Positions 1 through 18,631 of a stretch of 64,000 bases of DNA are shown here, piece after piece. Where the stretch lies: contig CAZQBY010000006.1 in assembly GCA_964592405.1 (NCBI GenBank), positions 13,007-77,006 of the forward strand. The letters run 5' to 3'. The translations under genes were made by a program, and so were the position numbers. The DNA comes from an uncultured archaeon (lineage in GTDB: Archaea; Altiarchaeota; Altiarchaeia; JAFGQM01). Positions within the stretch are counted from its first letter, which is position 1, and each line of letters begins with the position of its first letter. The notes beneath the pieces were generated by a model. The model did no database searches, was not told where the DNA came from, and saw only the letters and a list, made by a program, of their open reading frames with translations.

Positions 1-3000
1 CAAATCTGGGTGAAAATTCGGCTACCTGCCCGGAGGATTGCAAACCGCCTGAGACATTGAAAACTGTCATCATTGAAATAATGGGGGATGTCAGGGCAAG
101 TCTCGAGGTTCGTCTGGAGGATAGTGACGGCTATCTCATACAGTCCGACAGCGGAACAGCCAGTCAGTTCGTGATGAACGGCGTGCGGGAGGATATTGTA
201 AGTGTTTCAGTGAGGAACCCAATAAACAGCAGAGTCGTCTCATCCGGACCAATAGAGCTGAAGGAAAGGGTTACACGGGTACCAATAGGTCTCCCTCCGG
301 ATTTCTTTGATGTGGAGGAAAATGCCCCTTCCAAGGGGACCCTCAGGGTCGCAGTTAGGGACGCTGTCACTAACCACCCCCTATCTGCAACAGTCACTGT
401 TGTCATTCCTACCGGTTCCTCTTATGTACTTGTAAGAAGCAAGCATGTTGATGGTGTTGGTTATTTTACACTAGATACCGGCAACTGGTATGCCCTTCTG
501 GCGGATCTCTCCGGATACCAACAGTTCAACAATCTTGATAACCCAATCATGCTGGAGCCGGGGGAGGAGCGGGAGTATACGATTTCCATGCACCCACTTG
601 GTATCCCCACTACTTGGCCGCAGGATAATACATCCATACCTCCATTCTTTCCAAATAACATTACCCCAAATAACATCACACCGGAACTGGCAACAATCAA
701 TATCTGTGTGGCTGACCAGAATGGATCCCCCTTGACAGGATTTGTTGAGATGTATGGAGCTACAGGCATCAAAGAATCTGCTCAGGAGCTCTTGTCCGGT
801 TGCACAACCTTTGAGCTATCCTCTGGAAACATGGTAACTTTCTCCACAGCCGGTCTACCTCCAGACTGTCTGGATGTAACATCACAGGCCATACAGACGA
901 GCCCCGGAATCACTAACCTCAATCTGATAGCAAATTGCGATGTTGACTCTCAGGGAAGGGCAAGGGTCAGGATAATATGTGGAAATAATGCACCCCTCAC
1001 CGGAAATGCAACAATAAATGCTTTCTATGCAAGCGGCAATCAGATTCGTGGCACAGGGCCGGCGGGTTCACTTGCACTTGGCACAGATGGTTATACAGAA
1101 TATATAGGTGTGACTTTGGGAGATCCGTTCTACTTCATGATAACCAATCTTCCCGGCTATCCACCATACACTTCTGACGAATTTACAGTATCCGGTTCTA
1201 CTGACAGATCCATAGATATATGTATACCATCCTCTTCTCCTCCTGAAAGCAACATCACATTTCAGGACATATCCTATCCAAATCCTGTTATCGGAGGCTC
1301 TATTTTCAATGTGGAGATACCGCTCATCCTGTATGGCAATACTGACATAACGGACTTTGTCAATATATCCGCAGGCTTTGCCGGAATCTCCTGCCAGATC
1401 AGCAAAAACAATGGATGGTCTGCAAGATGCCTGGCACCATCCAGTCCGGGAGAGTATGATCTTTTCGTCTCCGCCACTTATCAGGGAAGGGAGAAGGTAG
1501 TTGTGAGGCAGATAACAGTCCTTGGCAGAGGAAGTCCAATATTCACCCTCACTCCACATGCAATTCTCAACACCCGGCCACCAATAGATCTGGAGATGGA
1601 CATAACCTTCAATACAACTCCACTTGATTCGCTCACCGATAGCCGTGTTACTGTCATTTATGAGGAGGGCGGCATCATAATCACAGATCAGCTGAGCCTC
1701 TCCGGTGGCAGCGGTCTTTACTACGTCACTATCGACAGTCCGTTTCCGGGGCAGCACCGCGCCGAGATATATCTGAAAAAGATAACTGGTGGCAGAATCT
1801 ATGAACAGAACTTCACAGTCCATTTCACCCTGACGCAAACAGGTACCCGGGTAACATCCGAGGCGTCTATAGATCCTGTGATACTCGCGCCCGCGGATCA
1901 GTTTACGACTGATGTTAGACTATGGTCAAACAGTATTGAAATTCCGGATCTGAACAATCTCTTCCTTATTCTTCAGGAGCAGAGGAGCAGACTGCCCTGG
2001 AACCCAAACACACATACCTACCATGGAATCTTCACGGCTCCGGATTATGAAGGCATCTTTTCTGTGGTCATAGAACTTGGAACCCAGGCCCTCTCCACCA
2101 AAAAAATATATGTTGTTGACACGACAAAAAACAAGGCTACCAGTTGTGATATAGCAAACTGTCAGACTATACCAGAGGTAAGAAAATGCGTCCAAGAATA
2201 CCATCTTGATGGACGATATTCCGAACAGGAAACCATAAGATGTATAGAATCCGGCTTCTTCTCCGACATAGGAACCGAACCAATACATTGCAAATCCCCA
2301 TCTGCCAATCGCGGCGACTGGGATAACAACTGCATGATTAACGCAGAGGGAGGTATTGATGACCTCTTCATAATGAGTGAGCTCCTTCGTAGAATCCCCG
2401 ACCAGGATGAGAGAAATACATACAGGGGCTGTGGCGACATGGACAATGACGGCGATGTGGATGAAGATGACCTGAAGTGCCTCAGGAATGTTGCGGCCCT
2501 TAAGTGGTTTGGTGATGTGGGTGACGGCACCTGCTCTACACCAATGCGCGGGGGCTTCTGCTTTGACATAGAGTCAGGTGTGCCCGGAGACTTTGACAAT
2601 AACAAAAACATAGATTCAGATGATGTGGTCATAATGACAAAGATATTGGATGTAATTTCATCCGGGATAACACCACCTCCTGAACTCCTGGACATAGCTG
2701 ATTTTGACAAAAACGGCCAGATAGACAGAACCGACAGTCAATGCCTTGAAAACATAGCTGGGGCCGGACCGATACCACTTTACTGCTTGGGAGTGTATGA
2801 CTTTGGATGTACGGGCACCAAGGGGGATATCACAAGAAATGGGGAATTGGACAGCATAGACATGATCCTTATGGCTTGGATGGTTGACGGACGGGTTGAT
2901 CCAGCTTCAGTATTTGACTGTGCTGATATAACTGATGATGGGGCTGTTGACGAAAAAGATCTCATGTGCTTATCCGGAATCGTAAATGAAAACACAAATG

Positions 3001-5057
3001 ATGTTGAGGATTACTGCACTCCATGCCAGATACGTATGAATGAATTAGGCAGATACGGCGATGAGATATGCCACGACGGTCTGGACAACGACTGCGACGG
3101 GTATATCGATGAGGCATGCCAGTGTGATGTAAACCAAAAATGCAATCGGAAGTATGACAATGACGGACTGTACAATACAGACGATTTCAAATATTGCCGT
3201 TCCCTGAGCTGGATGCTGGAAGGCGCATGGGAATGGTATTTCCCACAGGTCTACTCAAGATGCACTAGTGATATACAGTGTGAGACAAGAGCCTGCGAGG
3301 GATATGAGCGTATATGCAGCTCGCCTGATGGAACCAAAGGAAAGTGGTATAAGAGGGATGAGCTTCCGAAGGAGAGATGCGGCGACGGCTGGGACAATGA
3401 CTGCGTGGGTGGGGATGCAAGATGTCCGAGCAGCTGCTTCCCGGCTGGAACGCCAGTCACCATGGCTGATGGCTCATCCAAACCAATAGAAGAGGTCAGG
3501 GTTGGTGATATGGTCCTCAGCTATGACCCCACAGCGAAGACCTTTGCAGCAGGCAGGATCCTGGAGGTGGAGTCGCCCATAAGATATCACCTATACACAC
3601 TTATCTTTGAGGATGGAACCCAGCTTCGCCTCACTGGCGAGCATCCACTCTATGTCAAAGGCAAGGGCTGGGCTTCAATAGATCCCGGAGCCACCCATTA
3701 TGAAACCGGTCTGGTCGTACAGAAGCTGAAAGAGGGCGACAGCATATTTAGTAAAGAAAACAGCTGGCTGAAGATAACAAACATAACCTACGAGGAGATT
3801 CCGGAAGGTATTAGGACGTATAACCTCAAGAGGATAAGCGAATACAACAATTTCTTTGCCGGTGGGCTATTGGCTCATAACAAGGGCGGCGGTTGCCTCT
3901 ACACATATTCCATATCCGATGAGGGGCTGATTCTGGACCACCTCGCATATCCATTTTCAATAGTGCCTGCTTGGGAAACATATTCCTATGGAACAATGAC
4001 CCATCTGAAACCAAAGAACGGTCTTCTGAAAATCAGACTTTCCGAGGAGCTTCCCGAAATAACCAACATTAACCATGTAAGGCTCTTTGCAGTTGACCAT
4101 CCACCTGACACAGTTGTAATGCCCGACATAGGGGGCAAGATACACACCCTGTCAGAGCTGCAACCCCCATCATCCTGCATCTGCAGGGATGGAAGCGACT
4201 GTAGGGAGGATCTATTAAAAGAGGATGAAAAGAGCTATATATTCGATCTGGAATCTGCAAAGAGAGAGGACATCCATGATGCCCAAGATGCCATAGTCCT
4301 TGAGTTCCCAAAGCCGGCCTCTGCCGAGATGGCCAAAGTGGTAGTCAAGGGTGAGGAGTCCGGCCTGATAACATTCGTCTGGTGGCAGATACTGGACAGG
4401 GTTGGTGCAAACAACATGCAGGATTTCCTTGCCAGTCTTGGTTCGGGCTCTTTTGAATCCATCCTCTTTGACCAGTTTGCAAACAGGAAGGGCAAGGTCA
4501 ATATTCAGGTCTGGGATGGTCATAATTGGTTGGATGTAGCCTCCGAATATCTGGGCTTCTCCAAATATGGCAAGGGTGGTGAGGTTCTTGTCCCCATATA
4601 CCTGCCACAGCTTGGGGATGTTAAGGACAAGGACAGTCTGAAAATAAGACTGCTGTTCTCAAAAGGAGCATTTGAAATAGATTATGTCGGGATTGACTAC
4701 TCAACTGACGCCCCGGTCATCCTATATGAGCTGCCCATGGTCAGTGCAGAGACCTACGATTTGAGAGATGTCATCAGCTTGTTGCAAAATGATGATAATC
4801 TCTACCTGACTCTCAACAAGGGCGGCTGGGTTGACGTCACATTCTCAAAACCGGTTCCTGAGAACGACCTGCAGAGGTCGTATGTCGTTGCTGTGAAGGG
4901 TTACTACACATATGATATCAAAAGTCAGAGAAATCTTACACCTGAGACGCAGGGCTGGATTATCAGGATGATGCTAGATGAACCCTACCTTATTGACTAT
5001 GTTATGGAGAACTATCCGCAGAAGAAGGAGGCCTTCTTCCGCATTTACAATGGGTAA
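1..5057 (+). CDS. Giant surface protein P1 (5'-truncated by the window): Ig/carboxypeptidase-regulatory-like repeats, three dockerin-like domains, MopE-like Cys/Asp motifs, Hint domain, C-terminal domain of unknown function
   Basis: The frame is open from base 3 (NLGENSATCPEDCKPPETL, same as P2), so the start lies upstream. Six DxDxxGxxDxxD-type loops at about 2308-2980; EICHDGLDNDCDG motif; Hint domain at 3435-3881. Confidence 0.9.
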   Translation, partial: NLGENSATCPEDCKPPETLKTVIIEIMGDVRASLEVRLEDSDGYLIQSDSGTASQFVMNGVREDIVSVSVRNPINSRVVSSGPIELKERVTRVPIGLPPDFFDVEENAPSKGTLRVAVRDAVTNHPLSATVTVVIPTGSSYVLVRSKHVDGVGYFTLDTGNWYALLADLSGYQQFNNLDNPIMLEPGEEREYTISMHPLGIPTTWPQDNTSIPPFFPNNITPNNITPELATINICVADQNGSPLTGFVEMYGATGIKESAQELLSGCTTFELSSGNMVTFSTAGLPPDCLDVTSQAIQTSPGITNLNLIANCDVDSQGRARVRIICGNNAPLTGNATINAFYASGNQIRGTGPAGSLALGTDGYTEYIGVTLGDPFYFMITNLPGYPPYTSDEFTVSGSTDRSIDICIPSSSPPESNITFQDISYPNPVIGGSIFNVEIPLILYGNTDITDFVNISAGFAGISCQISKNNGWSARCLAPSSPGEYDLFVSATYQGREKVVVRQITVLGRGSPIFTLTPHAILNTRPPIDLEMDITFNTTPLDSLTDSRVTVIYEEGGIIITDQLSLSGGSGLYYVTIDSPFPGQHRAEIYLKKITGGRIYEQNFTVHFTLTQTGTRVTSEASIDPVILAPADQFTTDVRLWSNSIEIPDLNNLFLILQEQRSRLPWNPNTHTYHGIFTAPDYEGIFSVVIELGTQALSTKKIYVVDTTKNKATSCDIANCQTIPEVRKCVQEYHLDGRYSEQETIRCIESGFFSDIGTEPIHCKSPSANRGDWDNNCMINAEGGIDDLFIMSELLRRIPDQDERNTYRGCGDMDNDGDVDEDDLKCLRNVAALKWFGDVGDGTCSTPMRGGFCFDIESGVPGDFDNNKNIDSDDVVIMTKILDVISSGITPPPELLDIADFDKNGQIDRTDSQCLENIAGAGPIPLYCLGVYDFGCTGTKGDITRNGELDSIDMILMAWMVDGRVDPASVFDCADITDDGAVDEKDLMCLSGIVNENTNDVEDYCTPCQIRMNELGRYGDEICHDGLDNDCDGYIDEACQCDVNQKCNRKYDNDGLYNTDDFKYCRSLSWMLEGAWEWYFPQVYSRCTSDIQCETRACEGYERICSSPDGTKGKWYKRDELPKERCGDGWDNDCVGGDARCPSSCFPAGTPVTMADGSSKPIEEVRVGDMVLSYDPTAKTFAAGRILEVESPIRYHLYTLIFEDGTQLRLTGEHPLYVKGKGWASIDPGATHYETGLVVQKLKEGDSIFSKENSWLKITNITYEEIPEGIRTYNLKRISEYNNFFAGGLLAHNKGGGCLYTYSISDEGLILDHLAYPFSIVPAWETYSYGTMTHLKPKNGLLKIRLSEELPEITNINHVRLFAVDHPPDTVVMPDIGGKIHTLSELQPPSSCICRDGSDCREDLLKEDEKSYIFDLESAKREDIHDAQDAIVLEFPKPASAEMAKVVVKGEESGLITFVWWQILDRVGANNMQDFLASLGSGSFESILFDQFANRKGKVNIQVWDGHNWLDVASEYLGFSKYGKGGEVLVPIYLPQLGDVKDKDSLKIRLLFSKGAFEIDYVGIDYSTDAPVILYELPMVSAETYDLRDVISLLQNDDNLYLTLNKGGWVDVTFSKPVPENDLQRSYVVAVKGYYTYDIKSQRNLTPETQGWIIRMMLDEPYLIDYVMENYPQKKEAFFRIYNG
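2409..2571 (+). repeat. Near-identical 163-bp patch shared with 7641-7803
   Basis: Six mismatches by manual alignment; flanks are much more diverged. Confidence 0.9.
3435..3881 (+). other. Hint (intein-like, BIL/PT-HINT type) auto-processing domain, 149 aa, no homing endonuclease
   Basis: Block A CFPAGTPV..ADG, block B LTGEHP, block F TYNL..NFFA, block G LAHN followed by Lys rather than C/S/T. Confidence 0.9.
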
Positions 5058-5072
5058 TTAACAATCTATAAT

Positions 5073-7898
5073 ATGTCCTATGACGATTTTTTATGGGATA
5101 TTCTGGAAAGACTGCACCTAGCCGATTTCTTTGATGAGCACAACATCCCACCCATTCTCTTTTTGGTTGTGCTGGTGCTACTTGCCATCCTGATAATATG
5201 GCTCGCCTATGGTTTTGGCGGGGGTGTTGAAGAACCAGAGACCGGGGTCTGTGGCGATGGAATCTGCCAGACAAATCTGGGTGAAAATTCGGCTACCTGC
5301 CCGGAGGATTGCAAACCGCCTGAGACGTTAAAAACTGTTTTGGTTGATATCCTAGATGCAGTTAGGAGTAATATTGACATTATCGCGGAAGATAGCGAGG
5401 GCAACATACTATACTCCAGCAGCGGGACGGGGAACAAGTTCAAGATAACGGATATAACTGCTGACTCAGTCAAGGTAACTGTCAGAAATCCCCTTAACGG
5501 AATGACAGTATCATCTGACTATGTGAAATTGGAGGAAGAGACTACCAATATACCTATAGGGCTCCCACCGCAATTCTTCGATGTTGAATCAGTGGTCCCG
5601 CCGGAGAAGGCCACCCTGCGGATAGTGCTTAAAAACAAGGAAACTGGGGATCCGATCAGCGGGAAGGTCAGCGCAGTTATACCAAATGGCATTTCCTATG
5701 TTCTTGCAGAAGCGAAGAACATCGACGGAACCGGCTACTTTACACTAAACGCAGATCAGGATTATGCCCTCATAGTGGACTCACAGGGTTATAGACAATA
5801 CAATACACTGTCCAGCCCCATACGTCTGAGCGCAAGGATGGAGGAAGAGATCATAATAGAGCTGGAGCCTTTATCGTCCGACATACCATCTGACACAAGT
5901 GCAACAGTCAGTGAAGAAGCTACACTGAGGGTATGTATTCACAACCAGACCGGCGGCCCGGTGCCGGGCTCTGTGGAAGTGTATACGGCTACAAATGTCC
6001 GGCTGGTGACCAGAGAAGTTTCATCAGACGGATGTGCAACTTTTGAACTGACTCCGGGGGATCTGGTTTTCCTCTCCACAACAAATCTTCCGGAAGAGTG
6101 CCTTGATGCACTCTCTGCTCCTGTGCAGATACTACCGGAGGGAAATGAGTTTACACTAAACGTGCAATGCGGAGGTGCATACGGCAGGGTGCGCATGAAG
6201 ATATTGGGGGAGAACGACGAGATTCTTACCAGTGAAGCAACCATAACCGCCTGGTATGCAAGTGGTCAGCAGATAAGCGGCTCCGGTTATGGACACTCTC
6301 TATTGACTCCGCCGGGTTCTGAGTACACTGAGTATGTAGAGGTGGCTGCATCAACACCCTTTAACTTTATGGTAACCGGGCTGGAGGGTTATGCAACCTA
6401 CAGATCACAGAATTATATGGCTGAGCCATTTGAGGACAGGTCCATAGAGCTTCAGCTAACCCGCGAATCACTATCAGAGGATACCATCAGATTTTTAGGG
6501 GTAGTTTATCCAAATCCGACCTTTCCGAACCAGATATTTACTGTCACAATCCCAACAGTCATGTCGGGCAATTCCGACATCACTAATCTTGCAGATGTTG
6601 GGGTCAGTCTGGCTGGAACTGATTGCCATGTAACCAAGAGCCAGTTCTGGATAGCCAGATGCACAGCACCATCACAACCAGGTAGCTATGACCTGATAAT
6701 ATCTGCGAGTTATGGAGGTAAGTATAATACTGATATACGGGAGCTGACTGTTTTGGGCAGAGGCACAGGCCTTTTCACACTAGAACTCATAGGATTGCCG
6801 GATACAACTCCACCGACAACCTTGGAGTTCAATATAACCCTCAACGGCACGCCCCTAGATTCCCTAACTGACAGCAACGTTACGATATTCTATGTTCCGG
6901 GGGATATCATGGTAGCGGACCAGCTGAGCCTTTCTGGAGACAACGGTTTTTACACCCTCACAGCGGATAGTCAGTTCTCTGGCGAGCACCGCGCCGAGAT
7001 ACACCTCATGAAGATAAAACACGGGAAGGTCTATGAGCAGAATTTCACAATCACCTTTATGTTATCCGCTGCTCCTTCGGCGATGGCTGTCCAGGAGCTT
7101 ATTGAGCCACGCATACTGGAGCCCAGGGAGGCGTTCACAGTGGACGTCCGAATACAGGGCGTGGAGGCAGACGTGCCAAATCTGGATAATGTTTACTTTG
7201 TAGTCAAGAACCAGAGAACCAACCTTCCATGGAATCAAAGGCTGCACACCTACCACAGGGATCTTAATGCTCCCGGAGACGAGGGCATCTATCCGGTTGT
7301 CACAGAGCTTGGGGATGTTCCGTTAACTGGAGATAAGAAGATATATGTGGTAGACACAACAAAGCCCAAGTTCCCAACATGTGAGATAACCGGATGTGAG
7401 ACTATCCCGGATGTCAGAAGTTGTGTCTATGAATACAGATATGGGGGGCAGCACAACGAGGAAGAGGTCATAGTGTGCATAGAATCAGGCTGGACTAGTG
7501 AGGGCCTGTATCTCCCGCATTGTATCCTTCCATCTGCCAATCGCGGCGACTGGAATGAGAACTGCAGACTTGATGCAGAGGGACCTGACAGTGATGTTAC
7601 CCTGATGGAGGAATTTCTGAGAAAGATTCCCCATCAGGCTGAGAGAAATACATACAGGGGCTGCGGCGACATGGACAATGACGGTGATGTGGATGAAGAT
7701 GACCTGAAGTGCCTCAGGAATGTTGCATCCCTTAAGTGGTTTGGTGATGTGGGCGACGGCACCTGCTCTAAACCAATGCGCGGGGGCTTCTGCTTTGACA
7801 TAGGTGCAGAGATACCCGGAGACTACAACAGCAACATCAATTTCGATGAGGGCGATCTTGAGATCATGTCGCGCATAATTCATACAATAGAATCATGA
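5073..7898 (+). CDS. Surface protein P2, paralog of P1, N-terminal part of a split gene
   Basis: Acidic leader, TM helix and CGDGIC..CPEDC motif. Colinear with P1 until it stops in the middle of a dockerin (IES*). Confidence 0.85.
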   Translation: MSYDDFLWDILERLHLADFFDEHNIPPILFLVVLVLLAILIIWLAYGFGGGVEEPETGVCGDGICQTNLGENSATCPEDCKPPETLKTVLVDILDAVRSNIDIIAEDSEGNILYSSSGTGNKFKITDITADSVKVTVRNPLNGMTVSSDYVKLEEETTNIPIGLPPQFFDVESVVPPEKATLRIVLKNKETGDPISGKVSAVIPNGISYVLAEAKNIDGTGYFTLNADQDYALIVDSQGYRQYNTLSSPIRLSARMEEEIIIELEPLSSDIPSDTSATVSEEATLRVCIHNQTGGPVPGSVEVYTATNVRLVTREVSSDGCATFELTPGDLVFLSTTNLPEECLDALSAPVQILPEGNEFTLNVQCGGAYGRVRMKILGENDEILTSEATITAWYASGQQISGSGYGHSLLTPPGSEYTEYVEVAASTPFNFMVTGLEGYATYRSQNYMAEPFEDRSIELQLTRESLSEDTIRFLGVVYPNPTFPNQIFTVTIPTVMSGNSDITNLADVGVSLAGTDCHVTKSQFWIARCTAPSQPGSYDLIISASYGGKYNTDIRELTVLGRGTGLFTLELIGLPDTTPPTTLEFNITLNGTPLDSLTDSNVTIFYVPGDIMVADQLSLSGDNGFYTLTADSQFSGEHRAEIHLMKIKHGKVYEQNFTITFMLSAAPSAMAVQELIEPRILEPREAFTVDVRIQGVEADVPNLDNVYFVVKNQRTNLPWNQRLHTYHRDLNAPGDEGIYPVVTELGDVPLTGDKKIYVVDTTKPKFPTCEITGCETIPDVRSCVYEYRYGGQHNEEEVIVCIESGWTSEGLYLPHCILPSANRGDWNENCRLDAEGPDSDVTLMEEFLRKIPHQAERNTYRGCGDMDNDGDVDEDDLKCLRNVASLKWFGDVGDGTCSKPMRGGFCFDIGAEIPGDYNSNINFDEGDLEIMSRIIHTIES

Positions 7899-7955
7899 TT
7901 TTATGTGGATTTTTATGTCAATAGTATAATTTATCTTGAAATAATTTATCCTGAA

Positions 7956-9101
7956 ATGGATACGCCGAAAGCAGTTGAAACAAAAACATGTATTATTGCA
8001 GACACTAAAGACACATGTAAAGGCGATTACAAATTCCTTGCCATGGCCTCTATACTGGTCCTTTTGCTCTATCCATTCAGGGTCCCGGCTGTAAGTGTTT
8101 CAACACCGCCAGAACTCCTGGAGATAGCCGATTTCGATCAGGACGGGAAGATAAACAATGTTGACCATGAATGTCTGGACTACATAGTCGGCACCAGCCG
8201 GATACCCCTGCACTGCCTCAGGATATACAACTTTGGTTGCAGCGGCCTTAGGGGGGATCTGAATCAAAACGGCGAGCTGGATACCATAGATCTCATACTT
8301 GAAAAATGGATAATTGACAACAGGGTTGACTATCATGATGTCTTTGATTGTGCCGACATGACTGCTGACGATACTGTGGACAGCGATGATCTTGCCTGCA
8401 TGGTTGGTATGGTAGAGGGCAACAATGAGGCTATAAAGGCTTATTGCACCCCCTGCCAGCAAAAAGCCGGACAGGCGGGTAGATACGGCGATGAGATATG
8501 CCACGACGGGCTGGACAACGACTGCAACGGACAGATTGACGACAACTGTGTCTGCAATGAGCTTCAGCCATGTGGCAAGCGACTCGACTATGACGGTCTG
8601 CAGAATACGGATGACTTTAAGTACTGCTGGTCCCTGAGCTGGAAGAACAGCGGGGCATGGGGCTGGTACTGGCCTGAGGAGGTTGAAGAGTGCACAATGC
8701 AGATACAGTGTGAGACCAAGGAGTGCGATGGCAGGAGCTGGCGTTGCAGTTCACCCGGCAATGGGCGTGGTATCTGGTACAAAGGGGCGTTGCCCGCTGA
8801 GTCGGACGACCCGGAAGCCAGCCCCCGGACCTGCGAGGACGGCTGGGACAATGATTGTATTGGGGGGGACGAGAGATGCAAGCCGCCAGAGGAGGGAGGT
8901 ATGATGGGCCTCATTATAGTAATCCTAATCATAGCCATAATATTGATATGCGTAGCCACTGCCTGCTTTGGCCTCTTCGGAGGTGGTGCTGCTGCCGGAG
9001 CAGGAGCAGGAGCCAGTGGGGCCGCAATGGATACTGCAACTCTGATGAACAGTGTAATGAGCGTCCCCGGGGAGATGGTGCCTTTCGGTCCAATAGTCTA
9101 A
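7956..9101 (+). CDS. Surface protein P3, C-terminal part of the split paralog: new signal-like N-terminus, dockerin loops, MopE-like motifs, C-terminal TM and Gly/Ala tail
   Basis: Same frame as P2; homology to P1 resumes at about 8094 (STPPELLEIADFDQDG). Start uncertain (GTG 7905, ATG 7956 or ATG 8043). Confidence 0.75.
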   Translation: MDTPKAVETKTCIIADTKDTCKGDYKFLAMASILVLLLYPFRVPAVSVSTPPELLEIADFDQDGKINNVDHECLDYIVGTSRIPLHCLRIYNFGCSGLRGDLNQNGELDTIDLILEKWIIDNRVDYHDVFDCADMTADDTVDSDDLACMVGMVEGNNEAIKAYCTPCQQKAGQAGRYGDEICHDGLDNDCNGQIDDNCVCNELQPCGKRLDYDGLQNTDDFKYCWSLSWKNSGAWGWYWPEEVEECTMQIQCETKECDGRSWRCSSPGNGRGIWYKGALPAESDDPEASPRTCEDGWDNDCIGGDERCKPPEEGGMMGLIIVILIIAIILICVATACFGLFGGGAAAGAGAGASGAAMDTATLMNSVMSVPGEMVPFGPIV

Positions 9102-16076: not shown

Positions 16077-16973
16077 ATGGGCTACTACGAAAGGGTGTTT
16101 TCGCGGGTGGATTACAGAATACTGATAGCCCTACCGCCAGTGATAGCCCTGCTCCTGCTACCGGCTGCAATCCATATCCCTTTGGGCATTGACTTCACCG
16201 GCGGCACGGAACTCCAGATACTGACCAACAGGGACCTCACAGAATCCCAGCTGAGGTCTGCTCTCAGTACATGTGCATCTGATATGTCCATACATCTTCA
16301 GGAGCTGGGGGGCAAAAGCAGTGCCATAATCCGGACGAAGGACGAGATGACCAAAGAGTGTGTTGATTCAGCACTTGGAGAAGCGGGATTCACTGATGAA
16401 GAGCTTAGTTCCATATTCCCCTCTGTGTTTAAACCAGAACTGGGACGGATACTCATAGAGAGGGGCACAAATGTAATTATAATCGCCGGGATATTAATGT
16501 CCATAATAGTATTTCTGGCTTTCCGCTCACCAGTTCCTTCAATTGCAGTCATACAGGCAGCCATCTTTGACATACTGATTGCACTGGGATTACTTTCACT
16601 CATAGGTTTTGAGCTTAACCTAGCAGGAGTTGCAGCCCTGCTGATGCTGGTCGGCTACTCCATTGACACGGATATAATGCTGACATCAAAGATACTCGGA
16701 CAGAGCAATAAGCCATTTGGTGAACGGGCAAACCAGGCATTTGTAACAGGCATCACAATGACCGGAACAACTCTGGCTGCCATGAGCGCCATAGTCATCG
16801 TTACAGGCTTTATACACATGGATACCATAGTGCAGATAGCTACAGTCCTTCTGACTGGACTCCTGGCAGATCTCGCCACTACGTGGTTCACCAACCTTGG
16901 CATACTGAAGTGGTATGCCAGCAGGTCCAAATCCGGTTACCATCGATTCAGATTCAGCATATTCAGGTCATGA
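16077..16973 (+). CDS. secF: Protein translocase subunit SecF
   Basis: LGIDFTGGT motif, six TM helices, GYSIDTDIML motif. Confidence 0.93.
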   Translation: MGYYERVFSRVDYRILIALPPVIALLLLPAAIHIPLGIDFTGGTELQILTNRDLTESQLRSALSTCASDMSIHLQELGGKSSAIIRTKDEMTKECVDSALGEAGFTDEELSSIFPSVFKPELGRILIERGTNVIIIAGILMSIIVFLAFRSPVPSIAVIQAAIFDILIALGLLSLIGFELNLAGVAALLMLVGYSIDTDIMLTSKILGQSNKPFGERANQAFVTGITMTGTTLAAMSAIVIVTGFIHMDTIVQIATVLLTGLLADLATTWFTNLGILKWYASRSKSGYHRFRFSIFRS

Positions 16974-18631
16974 AACTAAAGCAGAACTGGAGAATTTTGG
17001 TCCTCGTAGTGATTGTGCTTCTGTCGATAAGTCTAGTTGCGACAAAAGGGCTCAGATACGGCATTGACTTCACCGGCGGCACGGAACTTAAGCTGGAGCT
17101 TGCGGAGGGTGGTGAAGAGGTCATAGACTCAGTGGTTGAGATACTCAAGAATCGGCTCAACAAGATGGGGCTGAAATCCACACAGGTGCTGAAGGAGGCC
17201 GATAACAGACATATTACAATAAAAGTCTCTACAACAAACACAGGCGAGCTGGCTGATGTCAAGAATATTATCAATAAACAGGCTGTCTTTGAGCAGAGAG
17301 TAGAGGGAGAGCTGTGTGCCAAGGGCGATGAGATACAGCTCGACATCTCACAGAGCGGCGGCGCCGACATCTATGGCAACAACTGGCGCGTTTATGTGAA
17401 AAACACAGGCGATTCGCCAGAGCGCTGTGGACAGGTTATGGAGGGGAAAGACGGCCACATGACAGACATCTTTTTGGACCGTCCTGACAAAGCATTCATA
17501 CTCATGGATAGCGACACCTGCACTCAGTTATCCAATACCCCATTCTCCAACCATCCCGATGACACCGGCTATACTATGCTCAGTTTTATTGAGGAAAGAG
17601 CCCTGATTCCGGTAGTCTGCTATACAACGGCTGTAAAACCGGAAGAGCCCGAGATAAATGAAACGCTCCTGGAGGAACTGGGAGTGAGAATCAGGGAGAA
17701 TGAAACCGAGTTGAAGACACTTGACATCAACCAGACCGTAGAAGAGGTGTCAAAACTACTTTCTGAGGGGATAACAACAGTCATCCTTCCAATCAGACTG
17801 GAGGAGCTTCCACAGGAGCTGCAGGATACTATAACAGACCTCAACCTCACTGTGGCCGAATATGTCAAATCCCCACAACAGGAATTCCATATAAACTATG
17901 GTGCAAACTCACCAAGACCGGATAACAGCGAGTCCTGGATAGATGTAGTGACCGGACTGAAGAGCACCCTTAGGATAGGTGCCGGCCTGACATATGGCAA
18001 TCCTGTATACAGCTCGGTCTTTGAGGGTGGAGCTCCGAATAGCGAACAGGCAAGGGAAATCGCTGAACGCTTCAAGATATGGCTGACGTCAGGCAATCTG
18101 CCAATCAAGATAAGCATAATACTTGAGCGTCCAAACCTACCGGAACTAGGCCAGCAGTTCCTGAACTATGTGGGCATAATAGCGGTTATAGCAATAATTC
18201 TTGTTGCTTCAGTAGTGTCAATCAGGTACAGAAAGCCTAAGATATCCCTTGCAATAATACTCACGAGCTTCAGTGAAATAATACTCATCTTGGGATTCGC
18301 ATCCATCTCCTCATGGGAGCTGGATCTGGCAGCCATAGCCGGAATAATAGCCGCCATAGGAACTGGTGTGGACCATCAGATAATAATAACAGATGAGACC
18401 CTGAGAGGGGAGAGAAGAAGGTCTGATGACAAGCTCTGGGACATCAAAAAGGCCATAAACAGGGCGTTTTTCATAATATTTACCTCCGCAGCCACCACAA
18501 TAAGTGCCATGCTTCCGCTTATGAGCATCGTCGATCTCAGAGGCTTTGCATTCACTTCCATAGTAGGCGTCTTAATAGGCATATCTATAACCCGGCCGGC
18601 TTATGCACGAATAGTCGAGTTCATAACCTGA
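16970..18631 (+). CDS. secD: Protein translocase subunit SecD
   Basis: YGIDFTGGT, ILKNRLNKMG, LTSGNLPI and IGTGVDHQIII motifs; ATGA overlap with the secF stop. Confidence 0.93.
   Translation: MKLKQNWRILVLVVIVLLSISLVATKGLRYGIDFTGGTELKLELAEGGEEVIDSVVEILKNRLNKMGLKSTQVLKEADNRHITIKVSTTNTGELADVKNIINKQAVFEQRVEGELCAKGDEIQLDISQSGGADIYGNNWRVYVKNTGDSPERCGQVMEGKDGHMTDIFLDRPDKAFILMDSDTCTQLSNTPFSNHPDDTGYTMLSFIEERALIPVVCYTTAVKPEEPEINETLLEELGVRIRENETELKTLDINQTVEEVSKLLSEGITTVILPIRLEELPQELQDTITDLNLTVAEYVKSPQQEFHINYGANSPRPDNSESWIDVVTGLKSTLRIGAGLTYGNPVYSSVFEGGAPNSEQAREIAERFKIWLTSGNLPIKISIILERPNLPELGQQFLNYVGIIAVIAIILVASVVSIRYRKPKISLAIILTSFSEIILILGFASISSWELDLAAIAGIIAAIGTGVDHQIIITDETLRGERRRSDDKLWDIKKAINRAFFIIFTSAATTISAMLPLMSIVDLRGFAFTSIVGVLIGISITRPAYARIVEFIT

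Follow-up and report, generated by a model that had tools for sequence, protein, structure and literature searches.

Hint domains of the bacterial intein-like (BIL) type have been described as bacterial. As summarised in passages of two reviews (PMC7765530, PMC7664689), A-type BIL domains such as that of C. thermocellum (2LWY) comprise ~140-150 amino acids (aa) without an endonuclease, start with a cysteine (Cys1) or a serine, carry a TxxH motif and a terminal His-Asn, have no Cys, Ser or Thr as the first residue behind the domain (+1), and lie in non-conserved linkers of secreted proteins, where they are present in some homologues and absent from others. The same passages report that BIL domains without a nucleophile at +1 give mostly cleaved products. 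BIL2 of Tetrahymena thermophila BUBL1 (6TMM/6Y75) is an intracellular, eukaryotic case: ubiquitin-like domains flank it on both sides, a ubiquitin-like protein is what it dispenses, and a lysine of its C-flank serves as nucleophile (PMC8616854). The Hint fold is also found in the PT-HINT domains of polymorphic toxins (e.g. RHS proteins), which stand near the C-terminus of large exported proteins; in the Hog domain of Hedgehog (1AT0), whose N-S acyl shift takes place at a Cys preceded by a small residue; and in mini-inteins (gp41-1, NpuDnaB), with their blocks A, B and G.

We analysed a stretch of 64,000 nucleotides (nt) from an uncultured archaeon of the Altiarchaeota (assembly GCA_964592405.1, contig CAZQBY010000006.1, positions 13,007 to 77,006), referred to here as the window, and found a BIL-type Hint domain in P1, one member of a row of giant surface-protein genes (P1-P6). 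The host of this Hint is an archaeon, not a bacterium; the window holds genes for ribosomal S3Ae, GatD, CDP-archaeol synthase and S13/S15, and the host genome comprises 1.13 Mb on 22 contigs at 87% completeness. To judge from its sequence, the P1 Hint is an archaeal example of a known module. Our search of the literature found no paper placing BIL-type Hints in archaeal surface proteins.

The Hint spans residues 1145-1293 of the P1 frame (nt 3435-3881) and reads CFPAGT...LRLTGEHP...GGLLAHN. Cys1 is encoded by nt 3435-3437, block B (T67-G-E-H70) by nt 3633-3644 and the terminal H148-N149 by nt 3876-3881. Lys occupies +1 (nt 3882-3884) and is followed by GGGC, so that the first Cys stands at +5, and 391 residues separate the end of the Hint from the P1 stop. 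An earlier reading of the letters without database searches (the sequence-only reading) had given the same coordinates, Cys1, TxxH, HN, +1 Lys and 391-aa remainder, all of which proved exact.

Pfam Hint (PF01079) matches P1 above its cut-off (E 4.9e-8, 33.3 bits, cut-off 29.7), the match covering only the N-terminal half of the profile (positions 11-117 of 213). The Intein_splicing and Vint models of Pfam also match, NCBIfam recognises intein N-terminal pieces only, and PT-HINT (PF07591) scores 24.7 bits in P1, below its gathering cut-off of 27.7, and 33.7 bits in the orthologue P0004. In a phmmer search against the PDB, the best match was Tetrahymena BIL2 (E 1.3e-10 over 147 residues), followed by 8W20 as the fifth match, a code that appears in a paper on Streptomyces umbrella toxins (PMC11062931), and by 2LWY (E 9.1e-5). 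An AlphaFold model built from a 9-sequence alignment reached a pLDDT of 97.0 and folds the 149 residues into a single Hint with no extra domain. Foldseek again ranked BIL2 first (TM 0.86-0.89, rmsd 1.9-2.1 A, 30% identity); 2LWY followed with TM 0.82 at 25% identity, mini-inteins with ~0.73 and Hedgehog 1AT0 with TM 0.73 at 13% identity. The Pfam, phmmer and BIL2 model matches lie far outside what chance would give. On the strength of the sequence and structure searches, we assign the domain, as modelled, to the BIL-type mini Hints without endonuclease. The proposals that it lacks an endonuclease and that it is a BIL-type Hint are thus borne out, the former by the model and the latter by Pfam, phmmer, alignment and Foldseek, with all catalytic positions kept.

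As a side observation, the top Pfam match of this Hint sub-clade is AXH (PF08517, the ataxin-1/HBP1 module), with 39 bits in P1 (window 3435-3750). AXH scores 46-67 bits in four flavobacterial relatives (L020, L022, L024, L025), and ataxin-1 AXH chains match at E about 1e-3.

Compared with the described systems, the P1 Hint shares the sequence and placement properties of the A-type listed above, among them a linker position that is not conserved, within a secreted protein, and an occurrence limited to some of the homologues. By every sequence-level feature it is an A-type-like BIL domain. It differs from the described A-type in its archaeal host, a sub-clade motif (HPxYVKGKGWA), a typical Lys at +1 and a PT-HINT score that misses the cut-off by 3 bits. 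BIL2 is its best match in sequence and structure, whereas the P1 Hint is flanked, on the outside of an archaeal cell, by the stalk of a surface protein on one side and by a beta-sandwich domain on the other; an isopeptide in P1 could be proposed only by analogy with BIL2. Like PT-HINT, it stands near the C-terminus of a large exported protein, but what follows it is a conserved, widespread domain of predicted binding type, with no immunity gene. It shares with Hog the fold, a Cys placed for an N-S acyl shift behind a small residue and a PF01079 score above cut-off, but it keeps His-Asn and has no sterol- or adduct-recognition region co-conserved with the Hint. With mini-inteins it shares the fold and blocks A, B and G; in contrast to them, it lacks a +1 nucleophile, and its place is a linker in a surface protein that is variable and non-essential, not a conserved site in a housekeeping protein. 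By these comparisons the P1 Hint is not a canonical (class 1) intein, not a Hog domain and not a polymorphic toxin.

The open reading frame (ORF) of P1 (3..5057, + strand) is 5'-open and runs off the 5' end of the window. Its parts and the gene that follows are:

3..3434, + strand: stalk of P1, 5'-open, ending ...GGDARCPSS; its start lies upstream of the window
2583-2753 (aa 861-917), + strand: dockerin type I in the stalk (Pfam)
3063-3113, + strand: MopE-like Cys motif in the stalk (Pfam)
3435..3881, + strand: mini Hint domain of BIL type, 149 aa (Pfam, phmmer, model)
3882..3893, + strand: Lys(+1)-Gly-Gly-Gly linker after the Hint
3894..5054, + strand: C-terminal tail domain of P1, ~387 aa, beginning with a near-invariant Cys; beta-sandwiches
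5055-5057, + strand: P1 stop codon
5073..9101, + strand: paralogue P2, in two ORFs (5073-7898 and 7905-9101)

Dockerin and the MopE-type Cys motif support an extracellular setting for P1. A run of 100 masked bases (G000:C6:12907-13006) abuts the start of the window, and the N-terminus of P1 lies beyond it, upstream. An N-terminal amphipathic leader with a transmembrane (TM) helix is conserved in nine of the ten sequences displayed, the tenth being P0001, the public gene call of P1, which begins at an internal Met. The claim that P1 is an extracellular protein agrees with all three features.

We aligned seven full-length homologues to P1 (31-36% identical overall). Six of them lack exactly the 149 Hint residues and read ...GGDxxCP(S/T), a short Asp/Gly linker and then the GC(L/P)(Y/F)xY of the tail. 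Only P0004 carries a Hint, at the same place and followed by K-G-G-C. On this alignment, the Hint is a clean insertion into the flexible linker of Gly and Asp by which the stalk, at its Cys-rich end, is joined to the tail. Direct and inverted repeats were sought at the Hint borders and nothing meaningful was found.

The distribution of the Hint was followed in 61 genomes, P1's own and 60 relatives. It is present in all three genomes of the genus (54-57% identity) and was not found in the five other genomes of the family that were searched (64-85% complete). In the sister species G002, giant genes form a tandem pair, of which one bears Hint and tail and the other bears the tail and no Hint; G005 has four tail-bearing genes and no Hint. 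Between P1 and its orthologue P0164, identity is 0.51 in the stalk, 0.60 in the dockerin/Cys-rich region, 0.57 in the Hint and 0.56 in the tail; the corresponding values for P0004 are 0.28, 0.40, 0.49 and 0.41. No indel occurs in the Hint against either protein. By these values the Hint is under constraint, being conserved about as well as its flanks or better.

The C-terminal modules behind the stalk vary among paralogues and species of this protein family. P2, which begins 16 nt downstream of P1, is a paralogous surface protein, 49-53% identical to P1 and collinear with it through residue 1141, and its own end is a TM helix in place of the Hint and tail of P1. The G001 gene is the orthologue of P1, since its stalk is 51% identical to that of P1 versus 36% to that of the upstream paralogue; it is tail-less and ends ...FLAHN-KGGW-stop, the next gene starting one base later. 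The three closest database relatives of the Hint (P0161-P0163; 64-66% identity, with dockerin) end ...AHN-KW in their database entries. As far as these genes tell, the tail is dispensable and the Hint is not. Within one genus and one protein family, the same stalk thus occurs with the tail only, with Hint and tail, with the Hint only, or with a TM helix.

Beyond the genus, we delimited a Hint clade of 37 proteins at E 1e-5 or better, holding 49 complete domains. Cys starts 47 of these (the other two could not be determined), and 45 end in His-Asn; in a 28-domain alignment, T..HP and HN are at least 90% conserved, and the motif HPxYVKGKGWA marks the sub-clade. The few source names in the clade are Thermoplasmatales, Thermoplasmata, Woesearchaeota and "archaeon". 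In some architectures the Hint precedes Cys-rich modules, in P0167, P0169 and P0170 it lies directly before a C-terminal TM anchor, and 3 of the 37 proteins carry a P1-type tail. The residue at +1 in the 45 HN-ending domains is Lys in 28, Thr, Ser or Cys in seven, Gln in four, Ala in two, and Arg, Gly, Asp or Tyr in a single domain each. Relatedness among the proteins means that the counts lack independence. Lys is found in P1, P0004, P0164 and the G001 orthologue alike. Homologues do vary after HN, a point that the sequence-only reading had raised, with Gln, Ala, Thr/Ser/Cys and others at this position, yet Lys is dominant.

Tandem Hint arrays also occur in this clade (P0151, P0152-P0160), with two to seven matches and spacers of 1-5 residues. 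P0151 (1598 aa; Thermoplasmatales) has seven Hint-matched stretches in tandem, and at most of their junctions the +1 residue is Thr or Ser, the situation of true inteins; two Hints meet at an HN-KC-CF junction in P0152-P0155, P0159 and P0160.

What the Hint would do can be projected from these residues. After export and folding, Cys1145 would attack the Ser1144-Cys1145 bond and form a thioester by an N-S acyl shift with the assistance of T67 and H70, and Asn1293 (N149 of the Hint) would cyclise, aided by H148. The main outcome would be cutting at one or both Hint ends, which would part the stalk from the distal tail; molecules in which the two are joined again would make up no more than a small fraction. 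Mainly cleavage would be expected because there is no Cys, Ser or Thr at +1 and BIL domains without a +1 nucleophile give mainly cleaved products. We regard separation of stalk and tail by self-cutting of the Hint as the likeliest outcome, and as slightly more probable than not. The activity and its products are projected from published BIL behaviour, and the projection starts from what the data give directly, namely the Hint, its catalytic residues, its insertion, its conservation and the nature of the tail. Shedding of a distal domain and use of the thioester, the two courses proposed by the sequence-only reading, both appear sensible mechanisms for this domain.

Several observations weigh against self-cutting as the main outcome. 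The Hint-less homologues keep stalk and tail in one chain, which argues that the link between the two matters, a link that complete cutting would destroy. One species of the genus and the three closest database relatives also keep a Hint after which no more than 2-4 residues come, and its role in such terminal forms cannot be tail shedding. Even there, His-Asn and a basic +1 residue are retained, a conservation that would fit ligating chemistry as well as plain cutting. For these three reasons, the possibilities that the Hint splices or transfers its stalk stay alive. A further point concerns the gene itself: the P1 leader is readable before the masked run but, should that run measure exactly 100 nt, would lie one base off the frame of the main ORF (region G000:C6:12907-13006 and window 1-90), which leaves room for a frameshifted gene or an assembly error.

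The same possible offset around the masked 100 nt would suit the idea that the Hint is an inactive remnant, a mere spacer, or that the whole gene is broken. However, three species and P0004 retain every catalytic position in Hints that are 49-57% identical and free of indels, and the Hint equals or exceeds its flanks in conservation. We consider inactivity very unlikely.

Splicing would differ from self-cutting in that the Hint excises itself and rejoins stalk and tail through an amine of Lys+1, either the alpha-amine after Asn cyclisation or the epsilon-amine in an isopeptide. In its mature form the protein would thereby come to resemble the Hint-less homologues, to whose linkers the joined ...CPSS-KGGGC... 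is similar. Such a course is also consistent with Lys at +1 in 28 of the 45 HN-ending clade domains and with His-Asn being retained where just 2-4 residues follow. Ligation without nucleophilic side chains is named in the title of Aranko et al. 2013. For BIL2, the nearest solved relative, splicing with an isopeptide to a Lys epsilon-amine is reported (PMC8616854), but this nucleophilic Lys of the C-flank may or may not be the +1 residue. Against splicing stand the mainly cleaved products reported for BIL domains in passages of the reviews (PMC7765530, PMC7664689) and the residues found at +1 elsewhere: one database homologue and two relatives from flavobacteria have Arg, and nine others have Gln, Gly, Ala, Asp or Tyr. 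With such variation, a role in charge or structure is a better fit than that of an obligatory nucleophile. Splicing through Lys+1 is unlikely in our judgement, although of the outcomes other than self-cutting we take it most seriously. A Cys at +5 acting as splice nucleophile was considered as a general rule and rejected, since no Cys comes after the Hint in the terminal forms (KGGW, KW) or in several others.

In a Hedgehog-like transfer, the stalk thioester would instead react with a nucleophile from elsewhere, either a lipid or an amine or hydroxyl of the envelope. The stalk would thus become covalently attached, and the Hint and everything behind it would be discarded. The genes in which the Hint is kept and the tail is dispensed with (AHN-KGGW in G001, AHN-KW in P0161-P0163) would suit this course, as would the Hints just ahead of a C-terminal TM anchor in P0167, P0169 and P0170, the TM anchor of P2 at the same place, and a UbiA-type prenyltransferase gene that adjoins these genes in G000 (P1's own genome) and G001. 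Hedgehog is not known to have a terminal His-Asn, whereas His-Asn is conserved in this clade. Moreover, no adduct-recognition region was found and Hint and tail mostly occur apart, and the link to UbiA is one of adjacency only, and the upstream gene's C-terminus is not uniform across genomes. We think transfer of this kind quite improbable, though less so than an inactive Hint. The tail itself was considered as an adduct-recognition region of the Hint and rejected because Hint and tail mostly occur apart (2/150 by the tail, 3/37 by the Hint).

Splicing and transfer have a common denominator, that the Hint may be a covalent coupling device which either splices via a Lys+1 amide or passes the stalk thioester to another nucleophile. 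Taken as a single proposal, this is distinctly unlikely. If it were true, the C-terminal modules would be interchangeable anchoring solutions: a TM helix, a Cys-Pro beta-sandwich tail, or a ...GW end beside a UbiA-type gene.

The UbiA-type genes deserve description in their own right. The paralogue upstream of P1 (1250 aa; region G000:C6:7481-12793, L027 182-5494) ends ...SGCPLGW, its tail being lost just past the family's invariant Cys. It is abutted by a 519-aa gene whose product joins a UbiA prenyltransferase domain (E 5.6e-22) to a polytopic N-terminal extension of ~260 aa; its homologue in G001 begins 1 nt past the Hint-KGGW end. The UbiA-like gene stands behind a large Cys-rich surface-protein gene in G000, G001, G003 and G007, not in G024, and G002 is ambiguous. 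As a steady partner of ...W ends, the UbiA neighbour is inconsistent across genomes.

The tail that self-cutting would separate from the stalk is the usual C-terminal module of the P1 protein family and not a variable cargo. Pfam (even at E 10) and NCBIfam gave no match for it, and in 71 members of the tail family no Pfam match falls in the tail region. An exhaustive HMMER search with the tail returned 1631 representative clusters at E 1e-3 or better, 772 of them at 1e-10 or better, where a word-indexed search gave 5 matches; the ESM Atlas returned unnamed clusters of ~380 aa, mostly from Bacteroidota, which serve as leads only. Nearly all of the 150 best matches start at query residue 2-5 with the motif (G/S)-C-P-(F/Y)-(V/I)-Y, and Cys5, Pro6, E59, D115, W216, D305 and Y342 are at least 90% conserved; in P1, Leu replaces the Pro after Cys. 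Only two of these 150 homologues have a Hint in front. The domain occurs N-terminal, internal, C-terminal or right behind a TM helix in surface-protein architectures, together with beta-helix/NosD, Ig-like, PKD and Flg_new domains, class III signal peptides and N-methyl pilin-like leaders. These searches expose a large family of surface-protein domains that lacks a Pfam model and is marked by a near-invariant N-terminal Cys. The Cys-Pro of the family usually follows a Gly/Ser linker or lies directly behind a TM helix. Candidate roles for this lone conserved Cys are those of a free thiol, of a site for a lipid or for processing, or of a cross-link.

A model of the tail from a 96-sequence alignment reached pLDDT 92.7 and pTM 0.91. 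The structure search that the sequence-only reading had suggested for the tail came out empty with Foldseek, which gave a TM of about 0.2 for the whole model, and with the tail profile against PDB sequences, where matches stayed at chance level (best E 0.29). In an exhaustive VIA search, residues ~76-276 of the tail model matched galactose-binding-like/CBM32 jelly rolls (Z 9-10 over 115-140 residues), with PAPP-A, beta-galactosidases and CBM32 modules as partners. The first 75 and last 115 residues lie outside this match, and we claim no new fold for them. The jelly roll of the core, itself predicted, is a fold-level lead toward binding.

These properties bear on the possibility that P1 follows the logic of polymorphic toxins, in which a Hint frees a variable C-terminal effector upon contact with a target cell. 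The relatives of the Hint in named genomes are flavobacterial proteins (L020-L025: Aquimarina, Tenacibaculum, Polaribacter, Cytophagales) with 32-44% identity, and four of the six hold RHS repeats and/or DUF6443 or adjoin such a gene, so that bacterial relatives of the Hint do stand at the end of RHS-repeat proteins. The PT-HINT scores of P1 and P0004 point in the same direction, and Hint domains ahead of toxin domains are described in part of PMC3482391. In five of the six flavobacterial relatives, HN closes the Hint, +1 is K or R, and the protein stops 3-12 residues after that, which leaves no toxin domain behind this pretoxin-type Hint. Small unannotated ORFs follow in two flavobacterial loci.

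The P1 tail, in contrast, is conserved in Hint-less homologues and belongs to a family found at N-terminal, internal and C-terminal positions of many architectures; its core is predicted to be a jelly roll of carbohydrate-binding type, it matched no toxin family in Pfam or NCBIfam, and the ORF 16 nt further on is a paralogue and not a small immunity-like gene. By its relatives, the tail is not a toxin domain. The sequence-only reading had compared P1 with the polymorphic toxins, and this analogy is not supported, given that 2/150 tail homologues have a Hint, 3/37 Hint proteins have the tail, 6/7 homologues have the tail fused to the stalk, and a paralogue lies next; release of a toxin by the Hint is highly improbable. 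Its description of the tail as an uncharacterised beta-rich domain of secreted proteins without a toxin signature, on the other hand, agrees with the Pfam and NCBIfam searches and with the 71 members.

To the described BIL systems this locus adds a natural series in which the stalk bears Hint and tail, the tail alone, the Hint alone or a TM helix, together with a clade-wide Lys at +1 and a large tail family that Pfam does not model. Because this series lies within one genus and one protein family, the question of whether an extracellular BIL domain cuts, splices or transfers becomes directly testable.

Two further observations concern the neighbouring genes. P2 is interrupted by a TGA stop and a stretch of ~200 nt (window 7880-8080) with 33% GC, compared with a window average of 49%, that is unique in the genome; its second part opens with a signal-like hydrophobic segment of its own, and the split looks like gene fission with a new intergenic region. 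Amid the row of giant surface-protein genes P1-P6 lie SecF- and SecD-like genes (window 16077-18631).

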